This document shows positions 1,562 to 20,510 of a stretch of 64,000 nt of DNA, piece by piece. The stretch lies in contig OZ241875.1 in assembly GCA_965203325.1 (NCBI GenBank), positions 3,136,001 through 3,200,000 of the forward strand. The letters run 5' to 3'. The notes below the pieces were generated by a model. That model had not been told where the DNA came from. It searched no databases and was given only the letters and a program-made list of their open reading frames with translations. The stretch's first letter is position 1. Every line of letters begins with the position of its first letter. Origin of the DNA: a bacterium. Lineage in GTDB: Bacteria; UBA8248. The translations under genes and the position numbers were made by a program.

Positions 1562-1579
1562 ACACGGAAGGAAACGCAA

Positions 1580-2272: not shown

Positions 2273-2279
2273 GGCGCAC

Positions 2280-3389: not shown

Positions 3390-3728
3390 AAAAGCCCTTG
3401 TCAAGGGAGCGAACGCTCCCACCCCGGTCGCGTTCGACCCCCCAACTCCCCTTGTCGGGGCTGTTGAAAAAGCCCAAGGAGAGAGGAATCACTCCCCCCT
3501 TGAGGGGGAGTCGGTGAGGTGAGGGGGGTTTTACCCGAAACCGAACCGGTGGGGGGAGTTTTTTCTGTGGCATGTCCCCCCACCGAATCGGCCTTCGCCA
3601 AGGCTCGGCCTCTTCGACTCCCCCTCAAGGGGGGAGTGGATTTGAAATTCTCGTCCGTGGAGAGCGATCTCCGTTGGGGTCGTATACCGCCTTTTTTTAC
3701 CCCCCTGACAAGGGGGGTAGGGGGGTTG
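3378..3728. repeat. Composite MITE/REP-like palindromic repeat; inner ~235 bp nearly identical to 48476-48710
   Basis: GGCTGTTGAAAAAG ends; internal inverted repeat CACTCCCCCCTTGAGGGGGAGTCG / CGACTCCCCCTCAAGGGGGGAGTG. Confidence 0.85.
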
Positions 3729-3742
3729 GTTTTGAGTTACGC

Positions 3743-4801
3743 TCACACGTTAAACCGCACGTGGAAGATGTCGCCGTCGTGGACGACGTAGTCCTTGCCC
3801 TCGAGCCGGAGCGTTCCCCTGTCCCGCGCCGCGGCGAGCGAACCTGCCGCCATGAAGTCGGGGAACGAGATTACCTCCGCGCGGATGAAACCGCGCTCGA
3901 GATCGGAGTGAATCGTCCCCGCCGCATGGAGCGCGACCGTGCCCGCGCGAACCGGCCATGCGCGTACCTCCTCCTCGCTCACCGTGAAGAAACACCTGAG
4001 ATTGAGCAGCGAGAACGCCGCCTGAATCACCTTGTCGAGCGCTGAGGATTCGAGAGCGTAATCGGCGAGAAACGCAGCCCTCTCATCGGGGGGAAGTTGG
4101 GCGAGTTCTTCTTCGAGCCTCGCGGCCAGGACGACGGGCGTCTCTCCGTTCAGTTTGGCGAAAGCGTCCGCCTCTCCCAGCTGATCCTCGCCCACGTTCA
4201 CCACGAAGAGCAGCGGCTTGGCGGAGAGAAAGCCGAACCCTTTGACGGAGCGCGCTTCCTCCGCGCTCATCTGCATCGAGCGGACGGGGCGGCCCTCTTC
4301 GAGCGCTTCGCGGATGCGTCCCAAAAGCGCGAACTCCGCCGCCTCGGCAGGATCGCGTTTAAGCTTCACCAGGCGCTCCAGACGCTCCACCCGCCGCTCG
4401 ACGACGTCGAGGTCGCGCAGCATCAGGTCGAAGCGTACGTCGGCCAGATCGCGCGCGGGGTCGACGCTCTCCTTCGGGTGCGGAACGCCTGCGTCCTCGA
4501 AGGCGCGCACCACCACCAGGAGCGCGTCCGCGCCCTCCAGCGCCTGCGGGATGGCCTCGGCGCTCTTCGCGGCGCCCGCATCGCCCACGCCCGGCGCATC
4601 CACGAAGTTGACGCTCGCATGCGTCGTCTTCTTCGGCTTGAAAACCCCGCTCAGGGCGTCCACCCGGGCGTCTGCCACCGCCGCTGCGCCCACGTTCACC
4701 CGCGCGGCGCCGTATCCCCCCGTTATGGCCGTGCCGCCCGTGAGCGCGTTGAACAGCGTCGTCTTGCCACTGGCTGCGGGGCCGATGATGCCGATTTTCA
4801 C
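3743..4801 (-). CDS. ychF: YchF/OBG-family ATPase
   Basis: MKIGIIG...GKTTLFNALT, FVDAPG, AGTIHSDLERGFIRAEV, RLEGKDYVVHDGD..RFNV. Confidence 0.85.
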   Translation of the reverse strand: MKIGIIGPAASGKTTLFNALTGGTAITGGYGAARVNVGAAAVADARVDALSGVFKPKKTTHASVNFVDAPGVGDAGAAKSAEAIPQALEGADALLVVVRAFEDAGVPHPKESVDPARDLADVRFDLMLRDLDVVERRVERLERLVKLKRDPAEAAEFALLGRIREALEEGRPVRSMQMSAEEARSVKGFGFLSAKPLLFVVNVGEDQLGEADAFAKLNGETPVVLAARLEEELAQLPPDERAAFLADYALESSALDKVIQAAFSLLNLRCFFTVSEEEVRAWPVRAGTVALHAAGTIHSDLERGFIRAEVISFPDFMAAGSLAAARDRGTLRLEGKDYVVHDGDIFHVRFNV

Positions 4802-4874
4802 GTTCTAACTCCTAAATGCGCCATGAACGAACAAACGCGCGCGAGTGTAGGAGAACGGAGGCACGAGGTCAAAA

Positions 4875-5118
4875 GGGGTGGGGTGTGTAGGGGCGGGCCT
4901 GCGTGTCCATCCCATCACCCCGTTTCATGACGCCCGACTCCGCATGGGAGAGCACATAGTCAGACATATATGTCTGACCCCTACGAAATCATTGCGGCCA
5001 CCGGAGGGACAACCCCCCGTGGTTGTCCTTTGCAGGGTGGACAGGGCCAGGACAGGTACGGGGGCCTGTCCCTGCAAAACCTGCAATCCTCGTTCCTCGG
5101 GGCTTTTTCAACAAGCCC
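4875..5118. repeat. REP/MITE-like intergenic repeat
   Basis: GTAGGGGCGGGCC REP-like start, GGACAGG...CCTGTCC hairpin, ends in CTTTTTCAACAAGCCC. Confidence 0.6.
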
Positions 5119-5332: not shown

Positions 5333-6610
5333 ATGATACAGCCGGGCGCTACATCTTTACGGAAGATCGCGGTTGTCGGGAGAGGAACCGCAGGCTCCCT
5401 TGCGGCCGCCAAGGTCACTCGTCTTCTGCCCGAGAGCGACCATGAGCTGCACCACATATATGACTCGCGTATCCCGGCCCTCGGCGTGGGCGAAGGCAGC
5501 TGGCCGAGCCTGGTTCAGGAATTGCAGGAACTGACGAATCTGCCCCATGAAACCATCCAGCAGCGCTTGAATGGAACGCGCAAGTACGGCGTGACGTTCG
5601 AGGGATGGGGCCGGCGCAACCAGGACTTCACCCACTATTTCACGCCGCAACAGGTGTCCTACGCCTACCACCTGTCCGTCGACTTGATGGCGGACCTGCT
5701 GCATGAAAGCACGCGCGCGCGCCACATCGACGCGAAAGTACTCGATATCACCAGGGTGGAAGGCGGCGCGCAAGTGGAATTCGAGGGCCTGCCGCCGGAG
5801 CGCTACGACCTGGTTTTCGATGCTCGCGGATTTCCCCGAGAACTCGATCCCGAACGGCACATCGAACTCTCTTTCATTCCCACCAATACAGCCGTCATCC
5901 GCCGCTGTCCGGCAATCGTCGAAGCAGAGCAGGACGGACCGGTTCTGCAACCTACCTATACCCGGGCGGTTGCGCGTCCGCATGGTTGGATAGTCGTTAT
6001 TCCGCTTACGGCACACACATCCTACGGGTACGTCTTCAACCGAGACGTATCCGGCCTTGACGAAGTCGAATCGGACTTTGACGCTTTCCTCGAAAGCGAC
6101 GGCGTGTCGGAATTCGAGCAGCGCGCCGTCATTCCGTTTCCCAATTTCGTCCACCGCCGGATATTCGACGGCGCGGTAGTCCGCATCGGCAACGCAGCCG
6201 CTTTCATGGAACCCCTCGAAGCAACGGCGATCGTATCCGGACAGGTGGAGGTCGGGATGGCTCTCCAAATACGCCTGAACCGTTCGGCAGACCATCTCGA
6301 GCGTGACGCGCCGGTGGTCAATCGATTCCTCATCAACAACATGCTCTGCTTCGGCTTGTTCGTCGGTTGGCACTATTCCTGCGGCTCGAAGTACGATAGC
6401 GAATTCTGGAGATACGCCCGCGACCACGCCTGGCCGCAGCATCGAAAGGTGGCGGACCCTGAGTTCGTGGATTGCGACGCGCTCCGCAAATTCGACGAAA
6501 TGATTGAACTGAAGAACCAGTCGATCATTGACAAATCGGACTGGAATCGGACGTTGGCGTACTTCCCTCTCTCCTGTTATTGCCAGATGTCCCAGGGGCT
6601 GGGCTGCTAG
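5333..6610 (+). CDS. Tryptophan-halogenase-family flavin-dependent halogenase
   Basis: GRGTAG FAD motif, GVGEG, KYGVTFEGW (catalytic Lys region), GWIVVIPL (WxWxIP variant), FMEPLEAT. Confidence 0.8.
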   Translation: MIQPGATSLRKIAVVGRGTAGSLAAAKVTRLLPESDHELHHIYDSRIPALGVGEGSWPSLVQELQELTNLPHETIQQRLNGTRKYGVTFEGWGRRNQDFTHYFTPQQVSYAYHLSVDLMADLLHESTRARHIDAKVLDITRVEGGAQVEFEGLPPERYDLVFDARGFPRELDPERHIELSFIPTNTAVIRRCPAIVEAEQDGPVLQPTYTRAVARPHGWIVVIPLTAHTSYGYVFNRDVSGLDEVESDFDAFLESDGVSEFEQRAVIPFPNFVHRRIFDGAVVRIGNAAAFMEPLEATAIVSGQVEVGMALQIRLNRSADHLERDAPVVNRFLINNMLCFGLFVGWHYSCGSKYDSEFWRYARDHAWPQHRKVADPEFVDCDALRKFDEMIELKNQSIIDKSDWNRTLAYFPLSCYCQMSQGLGC

Positions 6611-6654
6611 GCGCCGGTCTTGGGAAATTTCAACATCGGTTGATTCTACGCCAT

Positions 6655-6748
6655 TGGTTTGGCCCCCCCGAGTCAAGAAACGAGGAAACGGAGGATGGCC
6701 AGGAAGGTCTGCAAGTCGGAGAAGATCGTTTGTCTGCTGCGTATGGAG
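6655..6748 (+). pseudogene. IS3-family left-end remnant with orfA fragment
   Basis: TGGTTTGGCCCCC end, GGAGG RBS, ATG 6695 encoding MARKVCKSEKIVCLLRME, resembling IS3 OrfA N-termini. Confidence 0.5.
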
Positions 6749-6915: not shown

Positions 6916-7048
6916 GTGCAACGGCAATCCGCTACTCCCAAACCGTGACATTTCTTGATCTGGATTGCCTGTAATTTTATGAGATATTTCCAAATGGGGT
7001 GAGATTTTTCACCTTGCCTGATTGCTACAAGGAGGCTACTCTGCGGTC

Positions 7049-7600
7049 GTGTTCAACAATCCGTTCGACTCATTTCATAAAACTGTTGCCGAAGCGAAGG
7101 AAGAACGCGAACAACTCGATCGGCTACTGACAGTTTCCACGCCGCGGGAGCGTCTGCTTGTCGCCGCCATTGCGCTTTTGCTGTGCATCCTCTCGGCATG
7201 GCTTTTCTTCGGCAACGTGGCTCGTAATATTGTGGTAGACGGCGCACTGGTCAAACAGGGCGAAAACTTGCCCGAGGGCAGACGGTCCGTGCAGGTCCTC
7301 GTCTGGGTCGAGAGCGGCATCGTTCCTCATATCGAGGCCGGGATGCCGGTGATGATTGAGCCGGATGCGGCAGACGGAGAAACAGGCGCACTTGCCGGAG
7401 AGGTCAGGGCGATTTCTGCCGTGCCCTTTTCCGGGGGGCTGGCTGCGTTTGGGTCCGCAGCGCCGGTGTCCGTGTACCGCATTGATATCGCGCTCGAAGA
7501 AAGTCTCGATTTGAGTTCCCTTGCGGGCAGGAAATGCCGGATTGTCATAGAGCTTGGCAGGCAATCTCCGATCGCACTATTTCGAATGAGGCGGTCATAA
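7049..7600 (+). CDS. Short NHLP-system secretion/HlyD-like membrane protein
   Basis: EQLDRLLTVSTPRERL + one TM helix and C-terminal RQSPI motif of NHLM secretion proteins; GTG 7049 follows AAGGAGG (track start 7022). Confidence 0.65.
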   Translation: MFNNPFDSFHKTVAEAKEEREQLDRLLTVSTPRERLLVAAIALLLCILSAWLFFGNVARNIVVDGALVKQGENLPEGRRSVQVLVWVESGIVPHIEAGMPVMIEPDAADGETGALAGEVRAISAVPFSGGLAAFGSAAPVSVYRIDIALEESLDLSSLAGRKCRIVIELGRQSPIALFRMRRS

Positions 7601-7601
7601 G

Positions 7602-9812
7602 ATGCCGTCTCTCACCTCCCCAAAAGCCGGCGATAAGGCCTCTTCGGACACATCGGCGCAGAGGGTAACCACGCCGATTCTGCTGCAGATGCATGTTTCA
7701 GAATGTGGCGCCGCCTGTCTCGGCATCGTACTGGCCTACTTCGGGCGTTGGGTGCCGCTTACCGAATTGCGCGAAAAATGCGAGGTGAGCCGGGACGGCA
7801 GCAGCGCCGCAAGCATCTTGCGCGCCTCCAGACACTATGGTCTCGAATGCAGTGGGCTCAGCATACGCGCCGAACAACTGAAAAAGCTGGAGTTGCCCTT
7901 GATTTTGTTCTGGCAATTCAGCCATTTCGTTGTCCTCGATGGATTCGATGGACGCTATTTCTATCTCAACGACCCCTCCACGGGGCGGCGCAGGGTTTCC
8001 GCCGAAGAGTTCAACAAGGGCTACAGTGGCATTGCGCTTCGTTTCAAGTGCGGCGCCGATTTCAGGCCCGGAGGCGAGCAACCCGACTTGTTCAGGCAAT
8101 TGGGCGCCTTGCTCTCCGGATCATGGAGTGTGCTTACCGGGGTGATTGCCTGCGGACTCATGTTGACGTTATTGACATTGATTATTCCCGCATCTCTCGG
8201 TGTTTTCGTCGACGATGTAATGAACAAACATGGGTCCTGGGGCGGATTGGTGACTGCCTTGCTCGGCGGCGGCGTCCTGGTATACGTCCTGTCCTTGCTC
8301 AAACACCGGTTCCTCAAGCGGCTCTCGGTCCGCTTGTCGGTGATTGGGTACAGTCGCGGCATGTCACGGCTGCTGCGGTTGCCGGTGGAGTTTTTTGAGC
8401 ACAGACTGGCGGGCGATCTGACCGATCGAGTCTCGTCCACCGACAGAATCGCCAAGAATCTGGCGGATCAGTTTCTTGTGCTCATCATCGACATGGCGAT
8501 GAGCGTGGTGTTGCTCGTGGCGATGTTCACCTACGATATCCTGCTCACGCTGGTTGTGCTTTTGCTGGCCCTTCTGCACGGGATGTTGGCCCACTTTCTC
8601 AACGCCCTCCGGGTTGTTCGAAGTCAGGCGATGAGACGCGAGCAGGGGTTGCTGATTGGCCTCGGTATGCAGATGTTGAGTCACGCGGACAATCTGCGCA
8701 TGACGGGAGCGGATGACCGGTTTTTTTCGCGCTGGAGTGGTCAACAGGCGCGTGAACTGCGTGCGCGCCAACTGTATTCCGAACTGGGCTCCGTCAATAC
8801 CTCGCTTCCGGGGCTGATTGACGCACTCCGCAGTGCGGCGATTCTCGGCATCGGGGGCAGTTTGGTCATGACCGGAGAAATGACCCTGGGGATGCTGGTC
8901 GGGTTTTACATCCTGGCGGAGATGTTTCTGGCTCCCGTCAAGCGATTTTTGGAGTTTGCGGAAAACCGTCAGGCGCTCGAAACCGATATGCAACGGTTCG
9001 AGGACATCTCCAAAACCGATGAAGATCCCGTTTTCAGCCGCAGGAGTCCGGAGCCGGAGTCAATCCCCACGTTCAACGGCCGGCTCCAGCTTGCGGGCCA
9101 ACTCGAACTGAGAAACGTCGCCTTCGGCTACAACAAGAGCCGACCGCCTTTGATAAAGGACTTCAGCCTCGTGATCAAGCCGGGGCAGCGCGTTGCCGTG
9201 GTCGGTCCCAGCGGTTCCGGCAAGTCGACCCTGGCGCGTCTGGTTTCGGGTGTCTATCAGCCCTGGTCGGGTGAAATCCTGTTTGATGGTCATCCGCGGG
9301 ATCAGGTTCCAGAAGAAGTGCTGCGGCAGTCCATATCCATGGTGGATCAGGAGATCGTGCTCTTTTCCGCTTCCCTGCGCGACAATATTACGTTGTGGAA
9401 CCCGGCCATTCCGGATGAAGTCATCTTCGCCGCGACACGGGATGCCCAGATCCATGACGAAATCCTGCTTCGAGCGCAGGGATATACGACCCTCGTCGAA
9501 GAGGGCGGGGCGAATTTCAGCGGCGGCCAGCAGCAACGCCTCGAAATCGCCCGTGCGTTGGTGGGCAATCCGACAGTGCTCATTCTGGACGAGGCTACCA
9601 GCGCACTCGATGCCGCAACGGAGGAATATGTCGATGATGCCCTGCGGCGTCGCGGCGTCACGTGCCTGATCGTTGCGCACCGGCTGAGCACCGTGCGGGA
9701 TTGCGATAGAATCATCGTGCTCGACAAAGGCGTCACGGTGCAATGCGGCACGCACGACGAGTTGATCGCGGATCGGGACGGCACGTATTACAAACTGGTG
9801 AAGTCGGGCTGA
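7602..9812 (+). CDS. NHLM peptidase-containing ABC transporter (C39-TMD-NBD)
   Basis: LQMHVSECGAACL (Cys), SHFVV (His), NDP; GPSGSGKS, FSGGQ, LDEAT. Confidence 0.92.
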   Translation: MPSLTSPKAGDKASSDTSAQRVTTPILLQMHVSECGAACLGIVLAYFGRWVPLTELREKCEVSRDGSSAASILRASRHYGLECSGLSIRAEQLKKLELPLILFWQFSHFVVLDGFDGRYFYLNDPSTGRRRVSAEEFNKGYSGIALRFKCGADFRPGGEQPDLFRQLGALLSGSWSVLTGVIACGLMLTLLTLIIPASLGVFVDDVMNKHGSWGGLVTALLGGGVLVYVLSLLKHRFLKRLSVRLSVIGYSRGMSRLLRLPVEFFEHRLAGDLTDRVSSTDRIAKNLADQFLVLIIDMAMSVVLLVAMFTYDILLTLVVLLLALLHGMLAHFLNALRVVRSQAMRREQGLLIGLGMQMLSHADNLRMTGADDRFFSRWSGQQARELRARQLYSELGSVNTSLPGLIDALRSAAILGIGGSLVMTGEMTLGMLVGFYILAEMFLAPVKRFLEFAENRQALETDMQRFEDISKTDEDPVFSRRSPEPESIPTFNGRLQLAGQLELRNVAFGYNKSRPPLIKDFSLVIKPGQRVAVVGPSGSGKSTLARLVSGVYQPWSGEILFDGHPRDQVPEEVLRQSISMVDQEIVLFSASLRDNITLWNPAIPDEVIFAATRDAQIHDEILLRAQGYTTLVEEGGANFSGGQQQRLEIARALVGNPTVLILDEATSALDAATEEYVDDALRRRGVTCLIVAHRLSTVRDCDRIIVLDKGVTVQCGTHDELIADRDGTYYKLVKSG

Positions 9813-12754
9813 TGCAGAATACAAGGCCGGAATACACGTCCATAGCCGAACTCGCCGCTCGCTTCGGCGCATCCGTGCCCTGCGCCGCCAACCTGCCGGT
9901 CAAGCTCGACGACCCGGATAGTGTCTGGTTCATCGATCAGGGTGCCGTCAATCTGTTCCTGGTCGAATTCAAGGACGGGGTGGAGCAGGCGGCGCCACAG
10001 CATCTGTTGCGCCGGGAATCGGGCTGGTTGCTGCCGGGTGTCGCCCCGGATCAACGAGACGGTGACGAGGACACGACGCTCAGCCTCATTGCCAAGGGAC
10101 AGCCGGGCACCCTTCTGAAACGTCTGCCGGCTTCCTTGCTGTCTCAGGTTCGTTCATCGGAACTGGCGGAACAGGCCGATACCTGGCTGACCGCCATTAC
10201 GGAAACACTGTCGCGTTTTGCAAGCCCCCTTCCGCGTCCGACTGCGCTGGCCGAACCCGGTCTGACGCAGACCCTGGCCCCTTGTACGCTATCCGTACGC
10301 CGCGGGGTGGTATGGGTATCCGAACCGCCGCGCGGCGCAAGCCTGTTCATGGGTATTATCGACCCGGCGGAACTTGCGGAGGCGTGCGGGCCTCACGAAG
10401 CCGTTATTCCGCTGACGCGGACAAGCTGGCTCACCTTGTTCGACGAGGCGACGCTGACGGGCGAATCTACCGAAACACTGGCGGAGCAAGGCATGCTGCT
10501 GCCGGCGCTCGCCTCTTTTCACGCGGTTGCTTTCACTCTGGAACGCCTGAACCGCCGACTGGTCGTGGCCGATGACGTCAATCTCGAACGCGCGCGGACA
10601 ACCAGCCGCCGCACGGCCGAAAATGCCGCGCGGCAGCGGCTCTTCAATATCTATGACCTTCCGATTGACCGGGATGCCGGTATCGAGGACACGGCGCTGG
10701 CGGATGCCCTGCAACTCATCGGGGACCATGAAGGAATCGATTTCAAGATACCGGCTCGCTCGGCACTTTCCGATTCTCCGGTCGGCCTCGTCGACGTTCT
10801 CGATGCGTCCGGCGTACGCGCCCGGCGCGTGCGGTTCAAAGCCGAGGGCAGCTGGTGGCGCGGCGACAGCAACGCGATGCTGGCATTCCGCGCCGAGGAC
10901 GGCCGCCCCGTGGCGCTGCTGCCGGGAATGTTCGGGCGATACCGGGAAATCGACCCGGTCAGCAAACGCCGCCTCCGGGTGACGGCGGACCGCGCGGGCG
11001 CGCTGAAAGAGGAGGCCTGGATGTTCTATCGGCCATTGCCGCCGGAGGACGTGAAACCGAAAGACCTGCTGGGAATGGCCCTGCACGGATCGGGCGCGGA
11101 TTTGGCGCGGCTGGTCATTTCCGGGCTTCCATACGGCTTGATCAACCTGCTGCCGGCGCTCGCGCTCGGGTTCGTTGCGAATCAAATTTTGGCGGGCGGA
11201 AGCGCAGAAGCGCTCTATGCCGTTGCCGTGGCGGTAGCAGCGTTCGGCCTGCTCGGCGCACTGCTGCACCTGTTTCAAAGCACGGCGATGATGCGGCTCG
11301 AGGGGCGCTCGGCATCCCGGCTCGAAGCCGCCTTCTGGGATCGTCTCATGCGCCTTCCGCCAAGCATTCTGCACCGCCATCCGGCCGGCGATCTGGCAAC
11401 CTCGGGAATGACGTTCCAGAATCTTCGCGACGGCTTGCGGGGGGTCGTCGCCGACAGTTTTCTGTCGCTCATTTTTCTGCTTCCGGTTTTCGGCGTCATT
11501 TTCTTCTACGACGCCACCCTCGGCCTCATCACCCTCGTCTTCAGCCTGGCTTCGCTGCTGGTCACCGTAGTCCTCGGGTTGCGCCAGATTCCACCTTATG
11601 GGCGTATGATCAGCGCAGCACGCCGCGTAGCCGGTCGACTGTTCCAGATCGTGGGAGGCATCTCCAAGCTGCGAATGGATAATGCGGAAGGGTCGGCTTA
11701 CGCCATCTGGGCGAAGGATTATCGTGAGCAGAAACGCGCGGAGATCGATCTGAGCGCGTTTGAGGGGCATTCGCGGGCGTTCGGCGCCGCGCTCCCTTTT
11801 CTGGCCGGCGGGGTACTGCTTTTTGCGGTGGCGTCGGCGGGAGACCGGAACATTCCGGTCGGCGATTTTCTCGTCGTTTACACGGTCTTTCTCGTTTTCC
11901 AGTCCTCCATCGCCCGGCTCGGTGAGTCCTTCGGCGCCATTGCCGCCATGCGGCCCGCGTTCGAGCAGATGGGCCCGCTGCTCTCCGCCGTTCCTGAAAC
12001 CGTGACGGAAGGAGAGCCGGTGGAATACCTGGGCGGTGAAATACTGTTCGACCGCATTTCCTTCCGCTACGACCCCGACGGTCCGTTGATTCTCGACGAC
12101 GTCACGATTCGCGCCCGTCCCGGCGAATTCGTTGCGATTGCCGGTGAGTCCGGCGCCGGCAAGAGCACCCTGTTCCGGCTCGCACTCGGCATTGACTGCC
12201 CGACCGCCGGTGCGGTGTATTACGACGGACGCGACCTGAGGCATCTGAATCTGAAGCAGGTGCGCCGGAAAATCGGCGCGGTGCCCCAATCCGTCGGACT
12301 CCATCCGCAAGATCTCTGGGACAATCTGGTCTCTCACCATGATGAAGTGGCGACGGAGGAGGTATGGGATGCGGTCCGGACCGCCGAAGTCGAAGCCCAG
12401 GTCAGGGACATGCCCATGGGCATGATGACCATGGTGGGCGCCAGCGGGTCCGTCCTCTCAGGCGGCGAGAGCCAGCGCATCACAATCGCCCGCTCGATAA
12501 TCGGCAGCCCTCGAATCATGTTGCTGGACGAGGCGACCAACTGGCTGGACAACGAAAGCCAGGCCAGGGTCATGGAGAACCTCGCCGCCCTGACTTCCAC
12601 CCGGCTCATCATTGCCCACCGGCTGTCCACGCTGGAACAGGCCGACCGCATCTACGTGCTGCAGGCCGGAAAAGTCGTGCAAAGCGGTTCCTTCGATGAA
12701 CTCAAGGAAGTCGACGGGGTATTCAAGGAATTGATCAAAAGGCAAATCGCTTGA
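9812..12754 (+). CDS. NHLM bacteriocin-system ABC transporter ATP-binding protein (no peptidase)
   Basis: ATG 9812 overlaps upstream TGA; N-terminal cNMP-like region, TMD, GESGAGKS, LSGGE, LDEAT. Confidence 0.88.
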   Translation: MQNTRPEYTSIAELAARFGASVPCAANLPVKLDDPDSVWFIDQGAVNLFLVEFKDGVEQAAPQHLLRRESGWLLPGVAPDQRDGDEDTTLSLIAKGQPGTLLKRLPASLLSQVRSSELAEQADTWLTAITETLSRFASPLPRPTALAEPGLTQTLAPCTLSVRRGVVWVSEPPRGASLFMGIIDPAELAEACGPHEAVIPLTRTSWLTLFDEATLTGESTETLAEQGMLLPALASFHAVAFTLERLNRRLVVADDVNLERARTTSRRTAENAARQRLFNIYDLPIDRDAGIEDTALADALQLIGDHEGIDFKIPARSALSDSPVGLVDVLDASGVRARRVRFKAEGSWWRGDSNAMLAFRAEDGRPVALLPGMFGRYREIDPVSKRRLRVTADRAGALKEEAWMFYRPLPPEDVKPKDLLGMALHGSGADLARLVISGLPYGLINLLPALALGFVANQILAGGSAEALYAVAVAVAAFGLLGALLHLFQSTAMMRLEGRSASRLEAAFWDRLMRLPPSILHRHPAGDLATSGMTFQNLRDGLRGVVADSFLSLIFLLPVFGVIFFYDATLGLITLVFSLASLLVTVVLGLRQIPPYGRMISAARRVAGRLFQIVGGISKLRMDNAEGSAYAIWAKDYREQKRAEIDLSAFEGHSRAFGAALPFLAGGVLLFAVASAGDRNIPVGDFLVVYTVFLVFQSSIARLGESFGAIAAMRPAFEQMGPLLSAVPETVTEGEPVEYLGGEILFDRISFRYDPDGPLILDDVTIRARPGEFVAIAGESGAGKSTLFRLALGIDCPTAGAVYYDGRDLRHLNLKQVRRKIGAVPQSVGLHPQDLWDNLVSHHDEVATEEVWDAVRTAEVEAQVRDMPMGMMTMVGASGSVLSGGESQRITIARSIIGSPRIMLLDEATNWLDNESQARVMENLAALTSTRLIIAHRLSTLEQADRIYVLQAGKVVQSGSFDELKEVDGVFKELIKRQIA

Positions 12755-12829: not shown

Positions 12830-14131
12830 ATGAAGAAACCCTTTGACGCAGCGGATTCCCTTGTGTCGCGGGCCGGCGAGGACGACGACTTCAGGGAGCG
12901 TCTTCTCGCCAAACCCAAAGAGACCATCGAAGCGGAATTCGGCGTGACGATGGCCGAAGGCCACGAGATTCACGTGCACGAAGACACCTATGCCGAGACG
13001 CACCTCGTCCTTCCGCCGCGCAGCAAATTCACCGAGGCGGAACGGGAGGAGGCGAGAACCGGTGCGGAATCTCTCGATTTCCTTCGCAAAACCATGCACG
13101 ACCCCGCGCCGCCCCTCCGTCCGCCCGTCGTTCAGGGGGAGATGGCCCCGAAGGCCGCCGCCACCGCCGAGGCGCTTGCGAAAGCGGGCAGAGAAGCCAT
13201 CCGCCGCGGTCTCGATTTCCTGGAATCCACGATAGACGAAAACGGCGCTTGGCACTGCATCCGGTTCAACGTGGCCGATCCGGAGGTGCCGCGGCATTTC
13301 GAAAGACCTCCCTTCGTATCGGCTTTCTGCGTCCTCGCCCTGGAATGCTGCGAGGAAGCGCGCGCCAGGGCCATCTGCGCCGCGAGCAGGGCGTATCTCG
13401 CCGACACGGTCGAATATCCCGGATTCTGGCGCTATTACCGCCATCTGCCCCCGGATCTCGACAGCACCGCACTGTGTTCACTCGTGATTGGCGCTCATCC
13501 CTGGATTTTGCTGGGGAGGAACGTTCCGCGGATACTGGCGAACCGCGACGAGGAAGGCCGCTTCATGACCTGGGTTCTCGAAGACGACGAACCCGATGTC
13601 GTGTCGCCCTTTCGCATCGAAGCCGACCCCGTGGTCAATGCGAACGTCATCGCCTGTCTCGGCGGCCACCCTGAAACCAAAGATGCCCGGCGATGGCTGG
13701 AAGCCCTGATAACCGAGGGCAATCTCGCGGGCTCCTCCAAATGGTATCCCGACGAGGTCGCCATCTATTATGCGGCCGCCCGCGCCATGGTCCGCGCACG
13801 GCCCGCTCTCGATCGGCTGCGCCCGGTACTGGCGGAGCGCATCCTGGGCTTGCGGGACGAGGAGGGGGATTTCGGCAATATCCTCCAAACGGCGCAGGCC
13901 GTCTCGGCGCTCCACCACGCGGGACGCCTCGACAGCATCGACGCGAAGCGCATGGTGGAGAGGTTCACGGGTTCGCAGCGTGAGGACGGTAGCTGGCCGG
14001 AACTCCTCGCGTTCGGCGACCAGACGCTGAAGTGGGGCGCGGTAGGGCAGATAGGGCATGGCTCCGAAGCCCTGACCACGGCGTTTTGCATCGAAGCACT
14101 CGAGCGTCTCGTCGCAGTCTTGGGGGCCTGA
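12830..14131 (+). CDS. NHLP leader-like domain fused to prenyltransferase/class II terpene-cyclase-like alpha-alpha barrel
   Basis: aa 9-78 align without gaps to the precursor leader; PPDLDST (DxDD-like), QW-like LDFL..TIDENGAW and SQREDGSW, DPVVNANV. Confidence 0.75.
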   Translation: MKKPFDAADSLVSRAGEDDDFRERLLAKPKETIEAEFGVTMAEGHEIHVHEDTYAETHLVLPPRSKFTEAEREEARTGAESLDFLRKTMHDPAPPLRPPVVQGEMAPKAAATAEALAKAGREAIRRGLDFLESTIDENGAWHCIRFNVADPEVPRHFERPPFVSAFCVLALECCEEARARAICAASRAYLADTVEYPGFWRYYRHLPPDLDSTALCSLVIGAHPWILLGRNVPRILANRDEEGRFMTWVLEDDEPDVVSPFRIEADPVVNANVIACLGGHPETKDARRWLEALITEGNLAGSSKWYPDEVAIYYAAARAMVRARPALDRLRPVLAERILGLRDEEGDFGNILQTAQAVSALHHAGRLDSIDAKRMVERFTGSQREDGSWPELLAFGDQTLKWGAVGQIGHGSEALTTAFCIEALERLVAVLGA

Positions 14132-14213: not shown

Positions 14214-16610
14214 ATGCCACAAAGCCCGGTTGTAGGTGGTGGCTCCGATTCGAGCAACGCCGGCGCCGCTCAGCCTATCGAGCCGTCCATCCTGACCGCC
14301 ATTCCGCATTATCTGCCGTTGGTCGTTTTTCCGCTGATTCTTCTCGGCGCGCTCTATGGCGGCTGGTGGCTGTTGCCGCCGCTCGTCTTTATGAGTCTGG
14401 CCGGGGCGCTCGATCGGGCGCTGGGCCGGGACGGACAAACCATGGATCCGGTGAAAACGCCGGAACACCGCCTGTTCTGGCACAATCTGCCGGTCTGGTC
14501 GTGGTCGTTTCTGTGGCCGCCGACGCTCGTTTTCGGTATGTGGCAAATCCTGGCGGCGGATCAATTCTCATGGTGGGAAGGCGTGCTCCTGGCGGTCATC
14601 CTGACGATGGAAGCGCAAGCCGTGTTCGTCGTCGGCCACGAGATGATTCATCGGCGCACGACCTGGGAGCGCCGGGTCGGCGAGTTCCTGCTCGCCTCCG
14701 TCTCCTATCCGCAGTACGCGACGGAACACGTCTATATCCACCATGCCCTGGTCGGCACGCCCTACGACGTGGGTTCCGCCCCGAAGGGGGAGAGTTTCTG
14801 GAAGTATTTCCCCAAGGAAGTCGTCAGCAACCTCGTCCATTCCTGGGAAGTCGCGGGAGAACGCCTGGCGCGGCGCCGTCTGCCCGTCTGGCATTACGAC
14901 AATCCGTTCTGGCGCTACGCGATAGGCGTCGCGTTCTGGTACGCGCTGGTGTACTGGATGGGCGGGATCTGGGCCGTTCCGGTCTTTATCTTCCTCGGCC
15001 TGTCCTGCGTCTTTTCGATGAAGATGAGCAACTACTTTCAGCACTACGGCCTGCGGCGGGTCCGCCTGGAGAACGGTCGCTGGGAAAAGGCGATGCCGCG
15101 CCATTCCTGGAGCGCCGACTGGAAGTTCAGCAACTGGATGTTTTTCAACATGCAGCGTCATGCGGACCATCACGCGGTGGCGTCGCGCCAGTATCCCCTG
15201 CTGCAGGTCAGCGGCCTCGATGAGTCGCCGGAACTGCCGGGAACCTACGCCGACATGATGAACATCGTGCTGCGGCCCAAGCGCTGGTTCGAGAAGATGG
15301 ACCCGCTGGTGGACCAGTGGCGCGAGCATTTCTATCCGGATATCGACGACTGGAGCCCCTACGACAGCCCGATTGCCGCGGCGCGGCCCGACGCCTTCGA
15401 CGCGATACTCGAGATATTCGGCGCCGCCCCGCGGCTCGCGAAATGGATTGAGCGGAATCCGGAGCTTCTGGATAACCTGCAGGACCAGGAATTCCTCGAT
15501 CTCGACCTGCCGAAAGGGTTCGGGCCGGATGCGGAATACGAAGCGATTGCGCGGCGCGGGCTGGCGAGAGTCTACTGGACGTACGAAATGGACGTTCCGG
15601 AATTGAAGGGTCTGGTCGCCGAACTGCCGGTGGCCGACGCGAGGGAAACCGCCGAGATTGTGCGGAACTGGTCGAACGACAAGGCGTTTCAGATCGGCAT
15701 GCACGTCATGCGCGGAAACCTGCTGCCGGCGGAAGCGAGTACGGCGCTCTCGAATCTCGCCGAAGCATCGATTTCGACCGTGCTCGCCTCCGTGGTCGCG
15801 GATTACGTCGACCGCTTCGGGACGCTCAGCGTGGGCGGCGTCGCCGCCGTTTTCCTGGGCGATCTGGCCAGCCGGGAAGCATACCCCGGCGTTGGAATCG
15901 AAATGCTGATCCTACACAACGGCCGTCAGTCCGGCGAAAATGAACGCATGTTCGGGAGCTTCCGAAAGTCGCTGAGCGACCTGTCGCAGGACAGCCTGTT
16001 GTTCTCCCCGGTCCCGCACGGCTCGAATTCCATTCCTGCGTTGACGCTTTCCGATCTGGCCGAGAGTTTCGGAAATTCGACTTCCGGCGAGGTTCCCGCC
16101 CTCACCAGGGCGCGTTGCGCCTTCGAGTATGAAGGTTCCGATATCGCAGACCGCTTCGAGGAGGCGCGGCGCCGGATACTGACCGAATACAGCGCGAACA
16201 GGTCTTTGCCCGACTGGTTGCGCGAGTGGACCGAAGAGGGCGCCGAAAAAAACGTGTCCGCATACGCCCGGATGCGCGGCGGGCTGAACGATGTCGAGAA
16301 GGCCGCGCGCTACCTGCAGTTGGAGCGCGGCGGAAGCTTCCTCGACGACCCGGCGCCGAGCGCTGCGGCGGTGTTCGATGCCGCCGGCGCCGAACCGCTG
16401 GCGCAAGCCGCGGTCATGTGGCGGGATTTGCAGGGCGTCATGCGCCTCGTCGGCGAGGAAGGGTTCGACGCGGCGGCGGGGGGGACGAAGGTCAAATCCC
16501 TGATTGCGAACGCTTGCGGGCAGGAGGATTTCGATGTGCTGGCGTCGGCGGTCACCGAAACCGCATCCGTCGCCGCCGCCCGGATCGATACGCTTTTTTC
16601 GCGCACATAA
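14214..16610 (+). CDS. AlkB-type membrane diiron hydroxylase/desaturase fused to degenerate GlnE-like nucleotidyltransferase domain
   Basis: His boxes HEMIHR, EHVYIHH, NYFQHYGL, QRHADHH; C-half with GAAPRLAKWIERNPELLD, LSNLAEA, LGDLASRE, RGGLNDVEKAARYLQL. Confidence 0.8.
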   Translation: MPQSPVVGGGSDSSNAGAAQPIEPSILTAIPHYLPLVVFPLILLGALYGGWWLLPPLVFMSLAGALDRALGRDGQTMDPVKTPEHRLFWHNLPVWSWSFLWPPTLVFGMWQILAADQFSWWEGVLLAVILTMEAQAVFVVGHEMIHRRTTWERRVGEFLLASVSYPQYATEHVYIHHALVGTPYDVGSAPKGESFWKYFPKEVVSNLVHSWEVAGERLARRRLPVWHYDNPFWRYAIGVAFWYALVYWMGGIWAVPVFIFLGLSCVFSMKMSNYFQHYGLRRVRLENGRWEKAMPRHSWSADWKFSNWMFFNMQRHADHHAVASRQYPLLQVSGLDESPELPGTYADMMNIVLRPKRWFEKMDPLVDQWREHFYPDIDDWSPYDSPIAAARPDAFDAILEIFGAAPRLAKWIERNPELLDNLQDQEFLDLDLPKGFGPDAEYEAIARRGLARVYWTYEMDVPELKGLVAELPVADARETAEIVRNWSNDKAFQIGMHVMRGNLLPAEASTALSNLAEASISTVLASVVADYVDRFGTLSVGGVAAVFLGDLASREAYPGVGIEMLILHNGRQSGENERMFGSFRKSLSDLSQDSLLFSPVPHGSNSIPALTLSDLAESFGNSTSGEVPALTRARCAFEYEGSDIADRFEEARRRILTEYSANRSLPDWLREWTEEGAEKNVSAYARMRGGLNDVEKAARYLQLERGGSFLDDPAPSAAAVFDAAGAEPLAQAAVMWRDLQGVMRLVGEEGFDAAAGGTKVKSLIANACGQEDFDVLASAVTETASVAAARIDTLFSRT

Positions 16611-16643: not shown

Positions 16644-18962
16644 ATGCCAACCCAGACGAAACGGAATCCCCCACGCGGGATATTGACGAAAACGACGCCT
16701 GCGGACCAGGGCCTCGTCGAGCTCCCCGCGCTCACCCCGCACCTGCAGTTCCGCGAAATCGACGAACGGCAGACGCTGCTGGTTTCCGAGTCGTTCGATA
16801 CGCTGCTGCACGGCGGCCTGTATGGCGATCTGCTGCCGCTTCTCGACGGCCGTCACCCGCATAACGAGATCGCCGCCGCCCTCGATGGCCGCCACCCCGC
16901 CGCCGATGTTCACGCGGCGATTGTTTCGCTCTCCGCCAGAGGCTATGTCGTCTCCGCCGATCATGGCATGGAACGGCCCCGGGCGGCCTACTGGTCGTCG
17001 CTCGGCGCATCGCCCCGCTGGGTCGAAGGGCGGCTGGCGCAGTCGCGAGTCGCGGTCGAAGGTGACGACGGCCGCCTCGTCCGGCACCTGGAAGAGGCCG
17101 GCATCGATATGGCGACCGGCGACCCCAAGCTCACCGTTGTCGTCTGCGAGGATTATCTCGACACACGGCTTGCAGAGGTGAACCGGCGCGCGCTCGAGGC
17201 GGGAGCGCCGTGGATGCTGGTGCGCCCGCGCGGAATGGAGGCGCTGTTCGGGCCCGTCTTTCGCGCGGATAAAGAAGGGCCCTGCTGGGAGTGCCTGGCT
17301 TGCCGCCTGCGCTGCCATAAGGAGGTCCACAATTTCCTGCGCAACTTCGCCGGTGAGGAAGCCGCCTTCAAGCCGTTCGCCGCCGAGTCCGGGGTCCTGG
17401 AGTCGCTGTACGGAATGATCGCGGCGGAGATCGTCAAATGGCTGGTGCTGGATGAGGCGGCCCCGATTCACGAGAACGCGATAGCGATGAACCTCGCCGC
17501 GTTCGAAAGTTCCAGGCATCCGGTGATGCGCCGCCCGCAGTGCCCCGCCTGCGGCGATGAGTCGCTCTATCGGCCGGACCGGCCGCCGGCGCCGCTTTGT
17601 CTGAGAGCGAGTCCCAAAACCCATCGCAACAGCGGCGGCGCGCGGGCCGTGACGCCCGAAGCGACCCTGGCGAAATACCGCCACCTGGTGAGCCCTGTCG
17701 GCGGGGTCGTTACATGGCTCGCGCGCACGACCGATGAGAGCGACTCCTGGCTGCACGTCTATTGGGCCGGGAGCAACCCCGGGGCGAGAAGCCGGAGCCT
17801 GAGTTCGCTCAGGCGCAGTTTGCGCAGCAAGAGCGCGGGCAAGGGCAGCACGCGGGAACAATCCGAGGCCAGCGCCCTGTGCGAGGCTATCGAGCGTTAC
17901 TCGGGCGCCTGGTGCGGAGACGAAATCTGCATCCGCAGGCGGTTCAACGACCTGGCTGCGGAAGAGGCGGCAATCCATCCCAACGATGTGCAGTTGTTCA
18001 GCGATTATCAGCTCGACAACGCGGAGAGCATCAACGCGAAAGGCCACCCGTACAACATCGTCCCGCCGCGTCTCGACCCCGATGCCGAAATCGACTGGAC
18101 CCCGGTCTGGTCGTTCACGCAGCGGCGGCATCGCTATCTGCCGACGTCGATGCTCTACAGCATGTCTCCCGAAGGGCGCGGCGGCGCCGATCTGATTGCC
18201 GACTCCAACGGCTGCGCCGCGGGGAACACCCTGGAGGAGGCCATCCTGCAGGGCTTCTATGAACTGGTCGAGCGCGATGCGTTCGCCATCTGGTGGTATA
18301 ACCGACTGAGAGCGCCCGGGGTCGATCTTTGCGGCTTTGACGACGAATTCCTCGCCTCGGCCGCGGGGTACTACGGCCGCTGCGAGCGGGAAGTGTGGAT
18401 GCTCGACGTTACCTCCGATATCGGGATTCCTTCGTTCGTCGCGCTATCGCGCAGACCGGACGCGGACACCGAGGACATCATATACGGCGCAGGCGCCCAT
18501 GCCGACCCGCGGCTGGCGGCCCTGCGCGCGGTTTGCGAGCTGAACCAGTGCCTTACCTGGCTGCCGCGTCCCGGCGGGGGCGACGGCAAGCCCATGATCG
18601 ACGATCCGCTGGCGCTCAGTTGGTGGAAGACGGCTCGACTTGCCGATTGTTCCTGGCTGGCGCCGGCACCGGACGCGCCGCTCAGGCAAGGCTCGCACTA
18701 TCCGGTGATCGAATCGGCGGACACGCGCGACGACGTGGAGCATTGCCGGGCGTTGGTGGAAGCCAAAGACATGGAGTTCCTCGTGCTGGACCAGACCCGG
18801 CCGGACATCGGGATGCCGGTTGCGCGGGTCATCGTGCCGGGCATGCGCCATTTCTGGGCGAGATTCGCGCCCGGGCGCCTCTACGACGCGCCCCTCGACA
18901 TGGGACGCCGCGAACACCCCCTGGCCGAAGCTGATTTGAATCCCGCGCCCGTGATCGCGTAA
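16644..18962 (+). CDS. TOMM cyclodehydratase, fused RRE/E1-like-YcaO
   Basis: GPCWECL...CPAC, SAGKG, SALCEAIERYS, SNGCAAG..ELVERDA, Pro-rich C-terminus LNPAPVIA. Confidence 0.92.
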   Translation: MPTQTKRNPPRGILTKTTPADQGLVELPALTPHLQFREIDERQTLLVSESFDTLLHGGLYGDLLPLLDGRHPHNEIAAALDGRHPAADVHAAIVSLSARGYVVSADHGMERPRAAYWSSLGASPRWVEGRLAQSRVAVEGDDGRLVRHLEEAGIDMATGDPKLTVVVCEDYLDTRLAEVNRRALEAGAPWMLVRPRGMEALFGPVFRADKEGPCWECLACRLRCHKEVHNFLRNFAGEEAAFKPFAAESGVLESLYGMIAAEIVKWLVLDEAAPIHENAIAMNLAAFESSRHPVMRRPQCPACGDESLYRPDRPPAPLCLRASPKTHRNSGGARAVTPEATLAKYRHLVSPVGGVVTWLARTTDESDSWLHVYWAGSNPGARSRSLSSLRRSLRSKSAGKGSTREQSEASALCEAIERYSGAWCGDEICIRRRFNDLAAEEAAIHPNDVQLFSDYQLDNAESINAKGHPYNIVPPRLDPDAEIDWTPVWSFTQRRHRYLPTSMLYSMSPEGRGGADLIADSNGCAAGNTLEEAILQGFYELVERDAFAIWWYNRLRAPGVDLCGFDDEFLASAAGYYGRCEREVWMLDVTSDIGIPSFVALSRRPDADTEDIIYGAGAHADPRLAALRAVCELNQCLTWLPRPGGGDGKPMIDDPLALSWWKTARLADCSWLAPAPDAPLRQGSHYPVIESADTRDDVEHCRALVEAKDMEFLVLDQTRPDIGMPVARVIVPGMRHFWARFAPGRLYDAPLDMGRREHPLAEADLNPAPVIA

Positions 18963-18971
18963 GGAAGCCAT

Positions 18972-20090
18972 ATGGATATCGACGAAGCAATCACGCTTAC
19001 CCAGGACCGTCTCGCCGAAGAAGGCGGCGCCATGGGAGATTTGCTCGGGCGCTTTCGGGGCAGGATTTCACCGGTTCTGATCGGAGATCCGGGGTGGGAG
19101 CGCATACTCGAATGCGCCGGGAAACTCCCAATCACCATGGGCGCCCAGCCGTTCGGTTTCGAGCTGCCTCTGCATGACGCTCGACCGGTGGCGGATTTCG
19201 GCGTCTCGCTGGCGAGCGGAAACCGCTCGGGTGATTTTTTCGAAGAGCGGGCGCGGACCGACGAGACGGACGAGACCGCGAGAGCGGTCGGGCGGCTGTT
19301 CCGGGAAATGGAAGCTCCGAACTCGCCCCTGCGGGAGATTGTGGGACGCAAGTTGATGCTGGAATACGACATAGATTCCGCGCCGGGCGGTAACAATCCG
19401 CTTCCCGGAATGTTCCTGCGGCCCAACGAGCGCACGTTATACGGCGGCGCAGGCCTCCAGAATGATATCGGAATCGTGGTGGACGCCCTCGTTTCCTGCG
19501 TCGGCTGGGAAAGGAATGCCGCTGAACGGGAAAACGCCGAACGGGTTTATCTGGCCCAGCCCGAAGACACGCGCCTGGATTCGTTCGGGGTATTCCCGTC
19601 CCGGGAACGCACAATCCGCCTGGCGATCATGGACTTCAAATCGCAGGGGGAAGTATGCCGCTATCTTGAAAACACGGGTTGGCCGGGTGATATATCGGCC
19701 GTCGAGTCCGTGATTTCACGCTTCCGGGAACGCGCGGATATCGTCAGAACCGGATTGAATATCGACGTGCGCGAAGAGGGTGTCGGTCCGGCGCTCGGCC
19801 TGACGCTTATCGTCAAACACAGATATACGAAAGATTCACGTTCTTGGCTCGACGGCCTGACCGATTGGGACGCATTTCTGGAAGCCTTGCGCCATGAGGA
19901 CCTTGTCGTTCCGGAGAAGGTTGAGGCGCTTGCCGAGTGGGTTTCAAAACCGACGACGCTTTTTGCCAAATCCGGGCCATTTTTACTGTTGCGGGGCATT
20001 CACCACATCAAGCTGGTCATATCCGGAGATCGGCTCAGGCAGGTCAAGGCCTATGTGTTCATGGTGCTTTCCGGAGCGGTCTCGGTTTGA
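18972..20090 (+). CDS. Hypothetical protein of the RiPP operon; candidate ABBA-fold prenyltransferase
   Basis: AAGGA RBS, 9 nt after YcaO stop; FGFELPL..ADFG, LEYD, HHIKL..VKAY; fold assignment is inference. Confidence 0.5.
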   Translation: MDIDEAITLTQDRLAEEGGAMGDLLGRFRGRISPVLIGDPGWERILECAGKLPITMGAQPFGFELPLHDARPVADFGVSLASGNRSGDFFEERARTDETDETARAVGRLFREMEAPNSPLREIVGRKLMLEYDIDSAPGGNNPLPGMFLRPNERTLYGGAGLQNDIGIVVDALVSCVGWERNAAERENAERVYLAQPEDTRLDSFGVFPSRERTIRLAIMDFKSQGEVCRYLENTGWPGDISAVESVISRFRERADIVRTGLNIDVREEGVGPALGLTLIVKHRYTKDSRSWLDGLTDWDAFLEALRHEDLVVPEKVEALAEWVSKPTTLFAKSGPFLLLRGIHHIKLVISGDRLRQVKAYVFMVLSGAVSV

Positions 20091-20203: not shown

Positions 20204-20455
20204 CTACCAGCAGCAGCAAAGGCCGGCCGAGACGGCTTCGAGTTGCTCCTCGGTGATGTTCGGATCCGGCGGCAACGCAATATGCACCGTCTGCATGTCG
20301 CTCTCATGGACCACGACATTCATCGAGTCGGGAATCGTGATGCCCAATTCCCCACAGATGGTCCCCTTCGGGTCTGAGAGCAGCTGTTGCCTGAAATCTG
20401 CGTCCAGGGCGGATTTCTCGACAATCTGCTTCAACATTTCATCGCCACTTCTCAT
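20204..20455 (-). CDS. NHLP-family RiPP precursor, predicted core LCCCW
   Basis: DADFRQQLLSDPK, VHE, LPP, ITEEQLEAVSAG cleavage motif; perfect AAGGAGGT RBS 5 nt before ATG. Confidence 0.92.
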   Translation of the reverse strand: MRSGDEMLKQIVEKSALDADFRQQLLSDPKGTICGELGITIPDSMNVVVHESDMQTVHIALPPDPNITEEQLEAVSAGLCCCW

Positions 20456-20510
20456 GGCTAACCTCCTTGGTAAGGTTTGATGAACAACACAACCTCATGT
20501 AATGAAACCG

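Follow-up and report, generated by a model that had tools for sequence, protein, structure and literature searches.

An AlkB-type diiron oxygenase fused to a degenerate GlnE adenylyltransferase module is a core gene of the srp proteusin cluster

The DNA analysed here is a window of 64,000 nucleotides from a bacterium of the lineage UBA8248 (assembly GCA_965203325.1, contig OZ241875.1, forward-strand positions 3,136,001 to 3,200,000), and our subject is a single gene at window positions 14214..16610, which joins a membrane oxygenase to a relative of the adenylyltransferase GlnE and lies amid genes for a peptide that is made on the ribosome and modified after translation (RiPP). A preliminary description made from the sequence alone had proposed an AlkB-type oxidase fused to a GlnE-type domain, and this two-domain architecture is borne out by Pfam, PDB and fold matches. 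The gene, its halves and their motifs are listed below (ORF, open reading frame; aa, amino acids; NTase, nucleotidyltransferase; dN/dS, ratio of nonsynonymous to synonymous substitution rates).

14214..16610, + strand: fusion gene, a single ORF of 798 aa with an ATG start
14214..15359, + strand: N-half, aa 1-382, an AlkB-type integral-membrane diiron oxygenase by its PF00487 and 8f6t matches, hydrophobic peaks and dN/dS
14637..14651, + strand: His box 1, HEMIH (H142, H146), from the alignment with 8f6t
14727..14744, + strand: His box 2, HVYIHH within EHVYIHH (H172, H176, H177), from the same alignment
15030..15053, + strand: NYFQHYGL motif (H277), from the same alignment
15159..15173, + strand: His box 3, HADHH within QRHADHH (H316, H319, H320), from the same alignment
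15360..16607, + strand: C-half, aa 383-798, one degenerate GlnE adenylyltransferase-half module of helical lead-in, NTase core and helical tail, by profile, BLASTP and Foldseek
15858..15902, + strand: degenerate NTase motif GDLASREAYPGVGIE, aa 549-563, equivalent in the alignments to GlnE GKLGGxE..SSDLD
15993..16022, + strand: SLLFSPVPHG, aa 594-603, which in the alignments replaces GlnE LYDVDMRLRP with its third acidic residue

The fusion gene is real and widely distributed and is not a chimera. A protein of ~798 aa with the same architecture was found in more than 100 independent assemblies, and a search returned 829 homologues, whose top 120 range from 788 to 815 aa in length at 72-98% identity. 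All per-locus counts given here refer to 80 loci kept from the 151 genome loci encoding a relative, which together with the window make up 81 aligned sequences; in 75 of these 80 loci, many of them on closed chromosomes, the ORF measures 788-816 aa. The five loci outside this range are a copy split by a transposon (L040), the two tail-less copies L069 and L080, one copy at a contig edge and one with a doubtful start. Besides, the domain junction near 15360 is spanned by a contig from the run X1 (record 4, 15293-15689, 0 differences) as well as by contigs from the RNA-library run X18 (record 10, 15250-15442; records 10 and 11 together, 15250-15672), whose presence in such a library is no proof of transcription. 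The same junction thus recurs in contigs of independent runs and in more than 100 assemblies, and the chimeric junction that had been considered in the preliminary description finds no support. With dN/dS well below 1 (pairwise Nei-Gojobori estimates for 13 pairs, 12 of them with a usable dS), the homologue lengths, the locus counts and the junction-spanning contigs refute an assembly chimera or a decaying pseudogene, an explanation to which we attach practically no credence. In the split copy (L040:11626-17086), an insert of ~4.6 kb interrupts the gene after aa 541 and encodes an rve/Mu-type transposase together with TniB-like AAA proteins.

For the N-half, the assignment rests on a match to FA_desaturase (PF00487) over aa 120-329 (E 8.6e-27; score of 94.9 bits, cut-off 29.7) and on a phmmer search of the PDB, which returned the alkane 1-monooxygenase 8f6t (E 1e-45, aa 52-377) and 8sbb (E 1.1e-33), AlkB structures of the same membrane diiron fold family with nine His in the same boxes. 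All nine AlkB His ligands pair with the boxes HxxxH, HxxxHH, NYxxHYG and HxxHH of 8f6t and are His in 81/81 sequences, so that the four His boxes previously placed at aa ~140-320 are indeed intact. AlkB-type oxygenases have six transmembrane helices; in a Kyte-Doolittle scan, five 19-aa peaks reach 1.5 or more, which all lie between aa 26 and 267, whereas the C-half has no such peak. Sequence identity of this half across phyla is 73-97% and its dN/dS is 0.05-0.14, while its nearest unfused relatives, named alkane 1-monooxygenase by their source, are 43-47% identical. From these sequence features, the AlkB half is very probably still catalytic. The structure 8f6t is itself a natural fusion of AlkB with the rubredoxin AlkG, and its alignment with our protein stops at aa 377, just before the C-module, so that in both proteins an extra C-terminal module is attached at the same point. 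In contrast to the AlkB-AlkG fusion, however, the appended module is here an apparently dead GlnE-type NTase instead of a rubredoxin, and the gene sits in a RiPP cluster and not in an alk operon. The full-length AlphaFold2 (AF2) model is weak (predicted local distance difference test, pLDDT, 61; predicted template modelling score, pTM, 0.51; His-box regions below 50) and was not used to place the C-module on a face of AlkB. A second match to the FA_desaturase family occurs in the same genome outside the window (G000:C1:4331936-4332541, E 2e-19), in an open frame of 496 aa.

The C-half is related to GlnE from end to end of one half-module and adopts the same predicted fold. GlnE family PF03710 matches aa 397-537 (E 4e-6, just above the cut-off) and the NCBIfam GlnE model PRK14108 matches with E 3.4e-20, the sole NCBIfam matches being two GlnE equivalogs that are far below their cut-offs (NF010706, 71.4 vs 724 bits; NF008292, 29.3 vs 487 bits). 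A profile built from 28 sequences over aa 383-798 matches the adenylylation domain of E. coli GlnE, 3k7d, with E 9.1e-8. Run against 1.84 billion representatives, this profile gave 1516 matches at E <= 0.001, and genuine GlnEs of ~950-1000 aa match it in their C-terminal half (~residues 600-970, E 1e-30 to 1e-21). By BLASTP, C-half residues 5-406 align to residues 568-1000 of a genuine GlnE of 1013 aa, P0267, at 30% identity (E 2e-53). The AF2 model of the C-half alone (pLDDT 71, pTM 0.75) leads Foldseek to the GlnE structures 1v4a (template modelling score, TM, 0.67) and 3k7d (TM 0.55), both with E 2.9e-8, followed by the GlnE-like AMPylase DrrA. The preliminary description had let the GlnE C-terminal domain begin at aa ~390, which agrees with the PF03710, 3k7d and P0267 matches, and the NTase fold of the C-half is confirmed by the Foldseek result. 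Unlike GlnE, which carries two NTase modules in tandem (removase and transferase), the fusion has one, which is attached to a membrane enzyme and whose metal-binding acidic positions appear to be lost or unconstrained.

On the evidence of the alignments, the ancestry of the C-half lies in one particular GlnE subclade, of which P0267 and P0300 are representatives. An insertion reading EFTDL..LP..ARRGLVRLYY is common to the C-half and this subclade and is absent from the other three of the five GlnEs aligned. The host's own GlnE, an ORF of 1079 aa elsewhere in the genome, matches the C-half in BLASTP only with E 0.006 over 61 aa, compared with E 2e-53 for P0267; because of this difference the module is traced to the subclade, and a copy of the host's own glnE, which we also considered as the source, is ruled out. 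In this respect the preliminary description has to be corrected: it had assumed a repurposed housekeeping domain, whereas the C-half belongs to a distinct GlnE subclade carried in a mobile cluster.

The catalytic site of this module is degenerate. The stretch GDLASREAYPGVGIE (aa 549-563) aligns to GKLGGWELGYSSDLD of GlnE, with G561 at the first and E563 at the second Asp position of the window's protein. The loss of the Asp pair of the metal motif, as originally noticed, is therefore true, although E563 is a conservative replacement. In the 81 aligned sequences, position 561 is occupied by A (52), G (12), E (4) or D (3), and position 563 by D (39), E (23), N (8), R (4) or H (3). Besides, the GKLGG loop reads GDLAS, with Lys changed to Asp and the second Gly to Ala, and the third acidic motif of GlnE, LYDVDMRLRP, has become LLFSP-VP. 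More distant AlkB fusions read SDVE, SEVE, SRIE, STLE, GRVE or WKFD at the acidic site, and since they vary so freely there, the site appears to be unconstrained. At the same time purifying selection acts on the C-half, with a dN/dS of 0.10-0.27 over aa 383-620 (again from the 12 pairs with a usable dS), and invariant columns are concentrated in aa 383-530. Judged by its motifs, the C-half has thus lost its nucleotidyl-transfer chemistry and is a pseudo-enzyme that is kept under selection. NTase folds without catalytic residues serve as protein- or ligand-binding scaffolds elsewhere, for example in MiD51 and NF45/NF90. These may be compared with our module by analogy, as dead NTase folds retained as scaffolds; they are, however, eukaryotic, without sequence relation to it and not fused to membrane enzymes.

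Concerning the electron supply of the oxygenase, the preliminary description had remarked on the lack of a rubredoxin gene in the window, and a genome-wide search with PF00301 extends this observation, as none of 36 candidates scored in the host genome (4.39 Mb, single contig, 95.5% complete) and none was fused. Among five other host genomes picked from different taxa, one has a PF00301 rubredoxin and four lack it. The C-half contains two Cys, and because there are only two, it should have no Fe-S centre of its own. Unlike in the canonical AlkB/AlkG/AlkT system, the rubredoxin donor is therefore neither encoded in the genome of the host nor fused to the oxygenase.

The fusion gene is embedded in a RiPP gene cluster with the following further members (NHLP, nitrile hydratase leader peptide; ABC, ATP-binding cassette).

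5333..6610, + strand: SrpI-type flavin-dependent halogenase, 425 aa, with its PF04820 match at window positions 5363-6442
7022..7600, + strand: HlyD-like adaptor of NHLP secretion, a short protein of 192 aa (TIGR03794, E 6e-8, matching profile positions 6-56 alone)
7602..9812, + strand: NHLP export ABC transporter with C39 peptidase, ABC1 (TIGR03796, E 6.6e-257; Peptidase_C39)
9743..12754, + strand: NHLP export ABC transporter, ABC2 (TIGR03797, E 3.8e-198)
12830..14131, + strand: protein of 433 aa with an NHLP leader and a class-II terpene-cyclase-like toroid, immediately 5' of the fusion gene in 70/80 loci
16644..18962, + strand: SrpC-type fused leader-binding/YcaO cyclodehydratase, 772 aa (PF02624, E 2.5e-92; TIGR03604, TIGR03882)
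18972..20090, + strand: conserved protein of 372 aa without a family, present in 75/80 loci
20204..20455, - strand: SrpE proteusin precursor of the NHLP type, 83 aa, with the sequence end SAGLCCCW

The gene order is fixed as NHLP-cyclase-like gene, fusion, YcaO, 372-aa gene and srpE, and the fusion gene is separated by 83 nt from the NHLP-tagged gene and by 33 nt from the YcaO gene. The YcaO gene lies downstream of the fusion in 78/80 loci, and the remaining two stop at a contig edge. Each of the ABC genes is found in 66/80 loci, the precursor likewise in 66/80, and of the 69 precursor-like ORFs found there, 62 terminate with SAGLCCCW. A halogenase was counted in 41/80 loci, at variable positions, a number that was scored via the antisense frame 5357-6676 (-) over the halogenase locus. 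This antisense frame had itself been a candidate for a gene without a family, but was rejected since the PF04820 genome search shows the halogenase on the + strand there. The flanks beyond the cluster are not common to the 80 loci, whose hosts include Nitrospinota, Paracoccaceae, Bryobacterales, Pseudomonadales, Binatia, Thermodesulfobacteriota and others, and the sequence is present in sponge-metagenome runs from nine studies. The NHLP/RiPP context that had been suggested beforehand is thereby established through the NHLP exporters, the YcaO enzyme and SrpE. As a separate observation, the HlyD-like adaptor at 7022-7600 (+) covers positions 6-56 of the 421-position NHLP HlyD model, and its counterpart in the locus L089 has 304 aa. 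The X18 contigs over srpE (20204-20500) have a word depth of ~1000-4900, compared with at most ~106 elsewhere, a contig depth that cannot rank genes.

A cluster of this kind was reportedly first described, as srp (sponge-derived RiPP proteusin), by Nguyen et al. in J Am Chem Soc in 2021. The cluster in our window is a copy of this published srp cluster, and the fusion is one of its core genes. Later accounts describe srp as a cross-phylum cluster of sponge symbionts, with the LCCCW core of SrpE, the YcaO enzyme SrpC making three thiazolines and the Trp brominase SrpI, so that three of about nine genes are characterised there (PMC10858898, PMC10286304, bioRxiv 10.1101/2023.06.09.544420). An LCCCW SrpE, the YcaO SrpC, the brominase SrpI, NHLP ABC exporters and the cross-phylum range in sponges all recur in our data, and at the level of the cluster we see no difference. 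According to a paper of 2025, "several genes of unknown function" are found in srp clusters (PMC11832590), and a preprint reports that RiPP clusters, the majority of which are likely srp, are highly transcribed (bioRxiv 10.1101/2023.06.09.544420). By its order relative to the genes of SrpC and SrpE, the fusion gene is probably "srpB". While the cluster is thus already known, the AlkB-GlnE architecture, its degeneration, its origin from a GlnE subclade, the missing rubredoxin and the sibling on resistance-nodulation-division (RND) pumps described below were not found in the literature searched, the founding srp paper being outside the reach of this search. The RiPP-linked AlkB literature, among the matches listed, dealt with DNA-repair AlkB or was unrelated and contained nothing on the fusion gene, and searches for proteusin desaturases and for the names SrpA, SrpB and SrpD returned nothing relevant to it.

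The neighbours of the fusion gene offer some hints regarding a possible substrate. In the 433-aa protein, an NHLP leader (aa ~9-70) is fused to an alpha/alpha-toroid, an unusual size for a leader-tagged enzyme. Its toroid matches over aa 205-425 the class-II cyclase domain of the drimenol synthase 9mhs (E 1.6e-5) and, weakly, squalene-hopene cyclase (SHC), and the motif D209-L-D-S-T-A214 (DLDSTA) is invariant in 22 homologues. We take this motif to resemble the acid motif DxDD/DxDTT of such cyclases. For the 372-aa protein, a feature search of the ESM atlas leads to clusters of ABBA aromatic prenyltransferases (0.90 and 0.89), which is to be read as a lead only. A third hint is provided by the locus L103, where a homologue of the fusion gene stands beside a gene resembling farnesyl/geranylgeranyl diphosphate (FPP/GGPP) synthases.

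The fusion belongs to a wider family, in which twelve or more 50%-identity clusters comprise AlkB-GlnE-like proteins of ~780-830 aa, some of them only 32-42% identical to each other. Three full-length relatives from metagenomes were compared in their gene context. In L089 (L089:3758-15617), a fusion protein 45% identical to ours is accompanied by a YcaO gene in divergent orientation, a homologue of the 372-aa protein, ABC exporters and a precursor ending in RCCCCW, while a 433-aa NHLP-cyclase gene was not detected in this cluster. In L091 the homologue is found beside an ABC pair only, and the large neighbouring ORFs there match no Pfam family and may be spurious. In L103 (L103:11-7926) a homologue of 50% identity is followed by the FPP/GGPP-synthase-like gene, an RND permease and a decarboxylase dependent on pyridoxal phosphate (PLP). 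A Rhodobacteraceae-type variant (L010-L014) is 73-74% identical in the N-half and only 43-45% in the C-half, and no 433-aa NHLP-cyclase gene was found upstream of it within ~10 kb in L011-L013 and within the 2.7-3.6 kb up to the contig end in L010 and L014. Apart from the AlkB fusions, AcrB-type RND permeases carry the same degenerate module at their C-terminus (P0288, 1525 aa; P0297, 1521 aa; also P0273, P0285 and P0302, with fragments among these proteins). Their modules have P or R at the first and E or D at the second Asp position and share the same lead-in insertion. The RND permeases therefore resemble our protein in bearing this module, with the first Asp lost, on a polytopic membrane protein, but differ in that the membrane partner is a transporter and not an oxygenase. 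As far as sequence comparison can tell, the degenerate GlnE module is portable and occurs on two unrelated kinds of membrane protein. Two proteins of ~455 aa, P0241 and P0243, correspond to the C-half module alone (matching residues 36-454 and 43-451) and are possibly free-standing, split or fragments.

Our preferred reading, for and against which we see the chances about evenly balanced, is that the fusion is a tailoring gene of srp: its AlkB half would oxidise the product at a hydrophobic site, and its dead GlnE half would work as an adaptor on the cytoplasmic side. According to this model, the reaction of the AlkB half would be an O2-dependent hydroxylation or desaturation, directed at a hydrophobic portion of the maturing SrpE-derived product that partitions into the membrane; candidate substrates would be a lipid or isoprenoid added by the neighbouring genes, the side chain of the core Leu or the core thiazolines. 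The dead GlnE half would take the place that rubredoxin occupies on the membrane enzyme in natural AlkB-rubredoxin fusions, and from there would bind the NHLP leader, a different Srp protein or an electron donor other than rubredoxin.

Several observations weigh against this tailoring-and-adaptor model. We infer the substrate, the reaction and the ligand of the C-module, and no result bears on them directly; a complex prediction of the C-half with SrpE scored 0.00 in both runs, for which controls were not run, and has no bearing either way. An isoprenoid substrate is faintly suggested by the cyclase domain of the 433-aa protein, the lead for the 372-aa protein and the context of L103, all of them weak hits, and the 372-aa protein gave no Pfam match in 22/22 homologues at E <= 10 and no meaningful match to PDB sequences. 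Besides, L103 has no YcaO gene in the 8 kb downstream, its upstream side being cut by the contig end, and the fusion family may for this reason not be RiPP-specific. Within the C-module, the C-terminal tail (aa 621-798) evolves fast, with dN/dS of 0.25-0.78, and is missing in L069 and L080 (680 aa) as well as in a clade of ~650-669 aa that is ~50-55% identical; part of the module is therefore dispensable. In addition, the loop GDLASRE, with D550, L551 and A552 invariant, is nearly invariant as a whole and close to the triphosphate loop GKLGSRE of GlnE, and 62/81 sequences keep D or E at the second acidic position, on account of which the C-half may have a ligand-binding or residual catalytic role. 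It is on these last two points, together with the low dN/dS of the NTase core region, that one could build an alternative in which the C-module regulates the oxygenase allosterically, sensing or switching through a bound nucleotide or other small ligand, or retains a non-canonical nucleotidyl transfer such as peptide AMPylation. Pseudo-NTases that still bind nucleotides do exist, MiD51 being an example. We nevertheless regard this alternative as unlikely, because the first Asp is replaced by Ala or Gly in 64/81 sequences, the third acidic motif is gone, the loop has lost the Lys and the second Gly of GKLG, and the acidic positions vary freely in the distant and the RND-fused forms.

The oxygenase might also modify a membrane lipid, a hopanoid or another isoprenoid of the producer, in self-protection or export, and merely travel with the cluster. 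Lipids or alkanes are the substrates of the AlkB family, the nearest unfused relatives bear the name alkane 1-monooxygenase at the identities given above, the homologue in L103 lies near a prenyl-diphosphate synthase and an RND permease in a stretch without YcaO, and RND pumps carry the same C-module. This would, however, leave the fixed operon position between the NHLP-tagged gene and the YcaO gene, with its two short gaps, as well as the conservation of the gene alongside the precursor across many phyla at 70-75% identity without a reason, and the distant homologue in L089 is again found in a cluster with YcaO and precursor; we consider this explanation slightly less probable than nucleotide binding. 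The least probable of the three would be that the C-module is a docking platform for a ferredoxin or flavoprotein as non-rubredoxin donor, replacing the rubredoxin domain and unrelated to the leader. Consistent with such docking are the attachment of the module at the point where rubredoxin follows in 8f6t, the absence of rubredoxin from the host genome and from 4/5 other hosts, the absence of redox genes among the Pfam and NCBIfam matches of the conserved cluster, and a C-half that with two Cys would lack an Fe-S centre. RND permeases, however, need no electrons and carry the same module, and this docking role has no direct support.

If the tailoring-and-adaptor model applies, the gene could go further and represent the first AlkB-type diiron oxygenase dedicated to the tailoring of a ribosomal peptide or peptide-lipid, steered by a pseudo-GlnE instead of a conventional leader-recognition element. 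The pseudo-GlnE, being present on RND pumps too, would then define a new class of cytoplasmic adaptor for membrane proteins, and since most of the hosts checked have no rubredoxin, a new partner would supply the electrons, unless the substrate itself does so, as in a conversion of thiazoline to thiazole. We put this extended interpretation forward tentatively and with considerable doubt. In any case, srp is among the few biosynthetic clusters common to several phyla and sponge species, and its final product and ecological role are still elusive. No uncharacterised enzyme of the srp core is more conserved than the fusion, and the true product can probably be reached only once its reaction is known. 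It would also be a naturally occurring AlkB-family enzyme that does without rubredoxin, and a clear example of how GlnE, a regulatory enzyme of the housekeeping kind, became a pseudo-enzyme module and spread to two unrelated kinds of membrane protein.

Some loci finally show variation in the number and the core of their precursors. L006 and L007 lie on one contig, so that one genome has two copies of the cluster, and the precursor of L007 has the core LSCCW. L013 encodes a second precursor ending in GFSMCF, and both L069 and L080 encode a second precursor ending in GMCCCGI.

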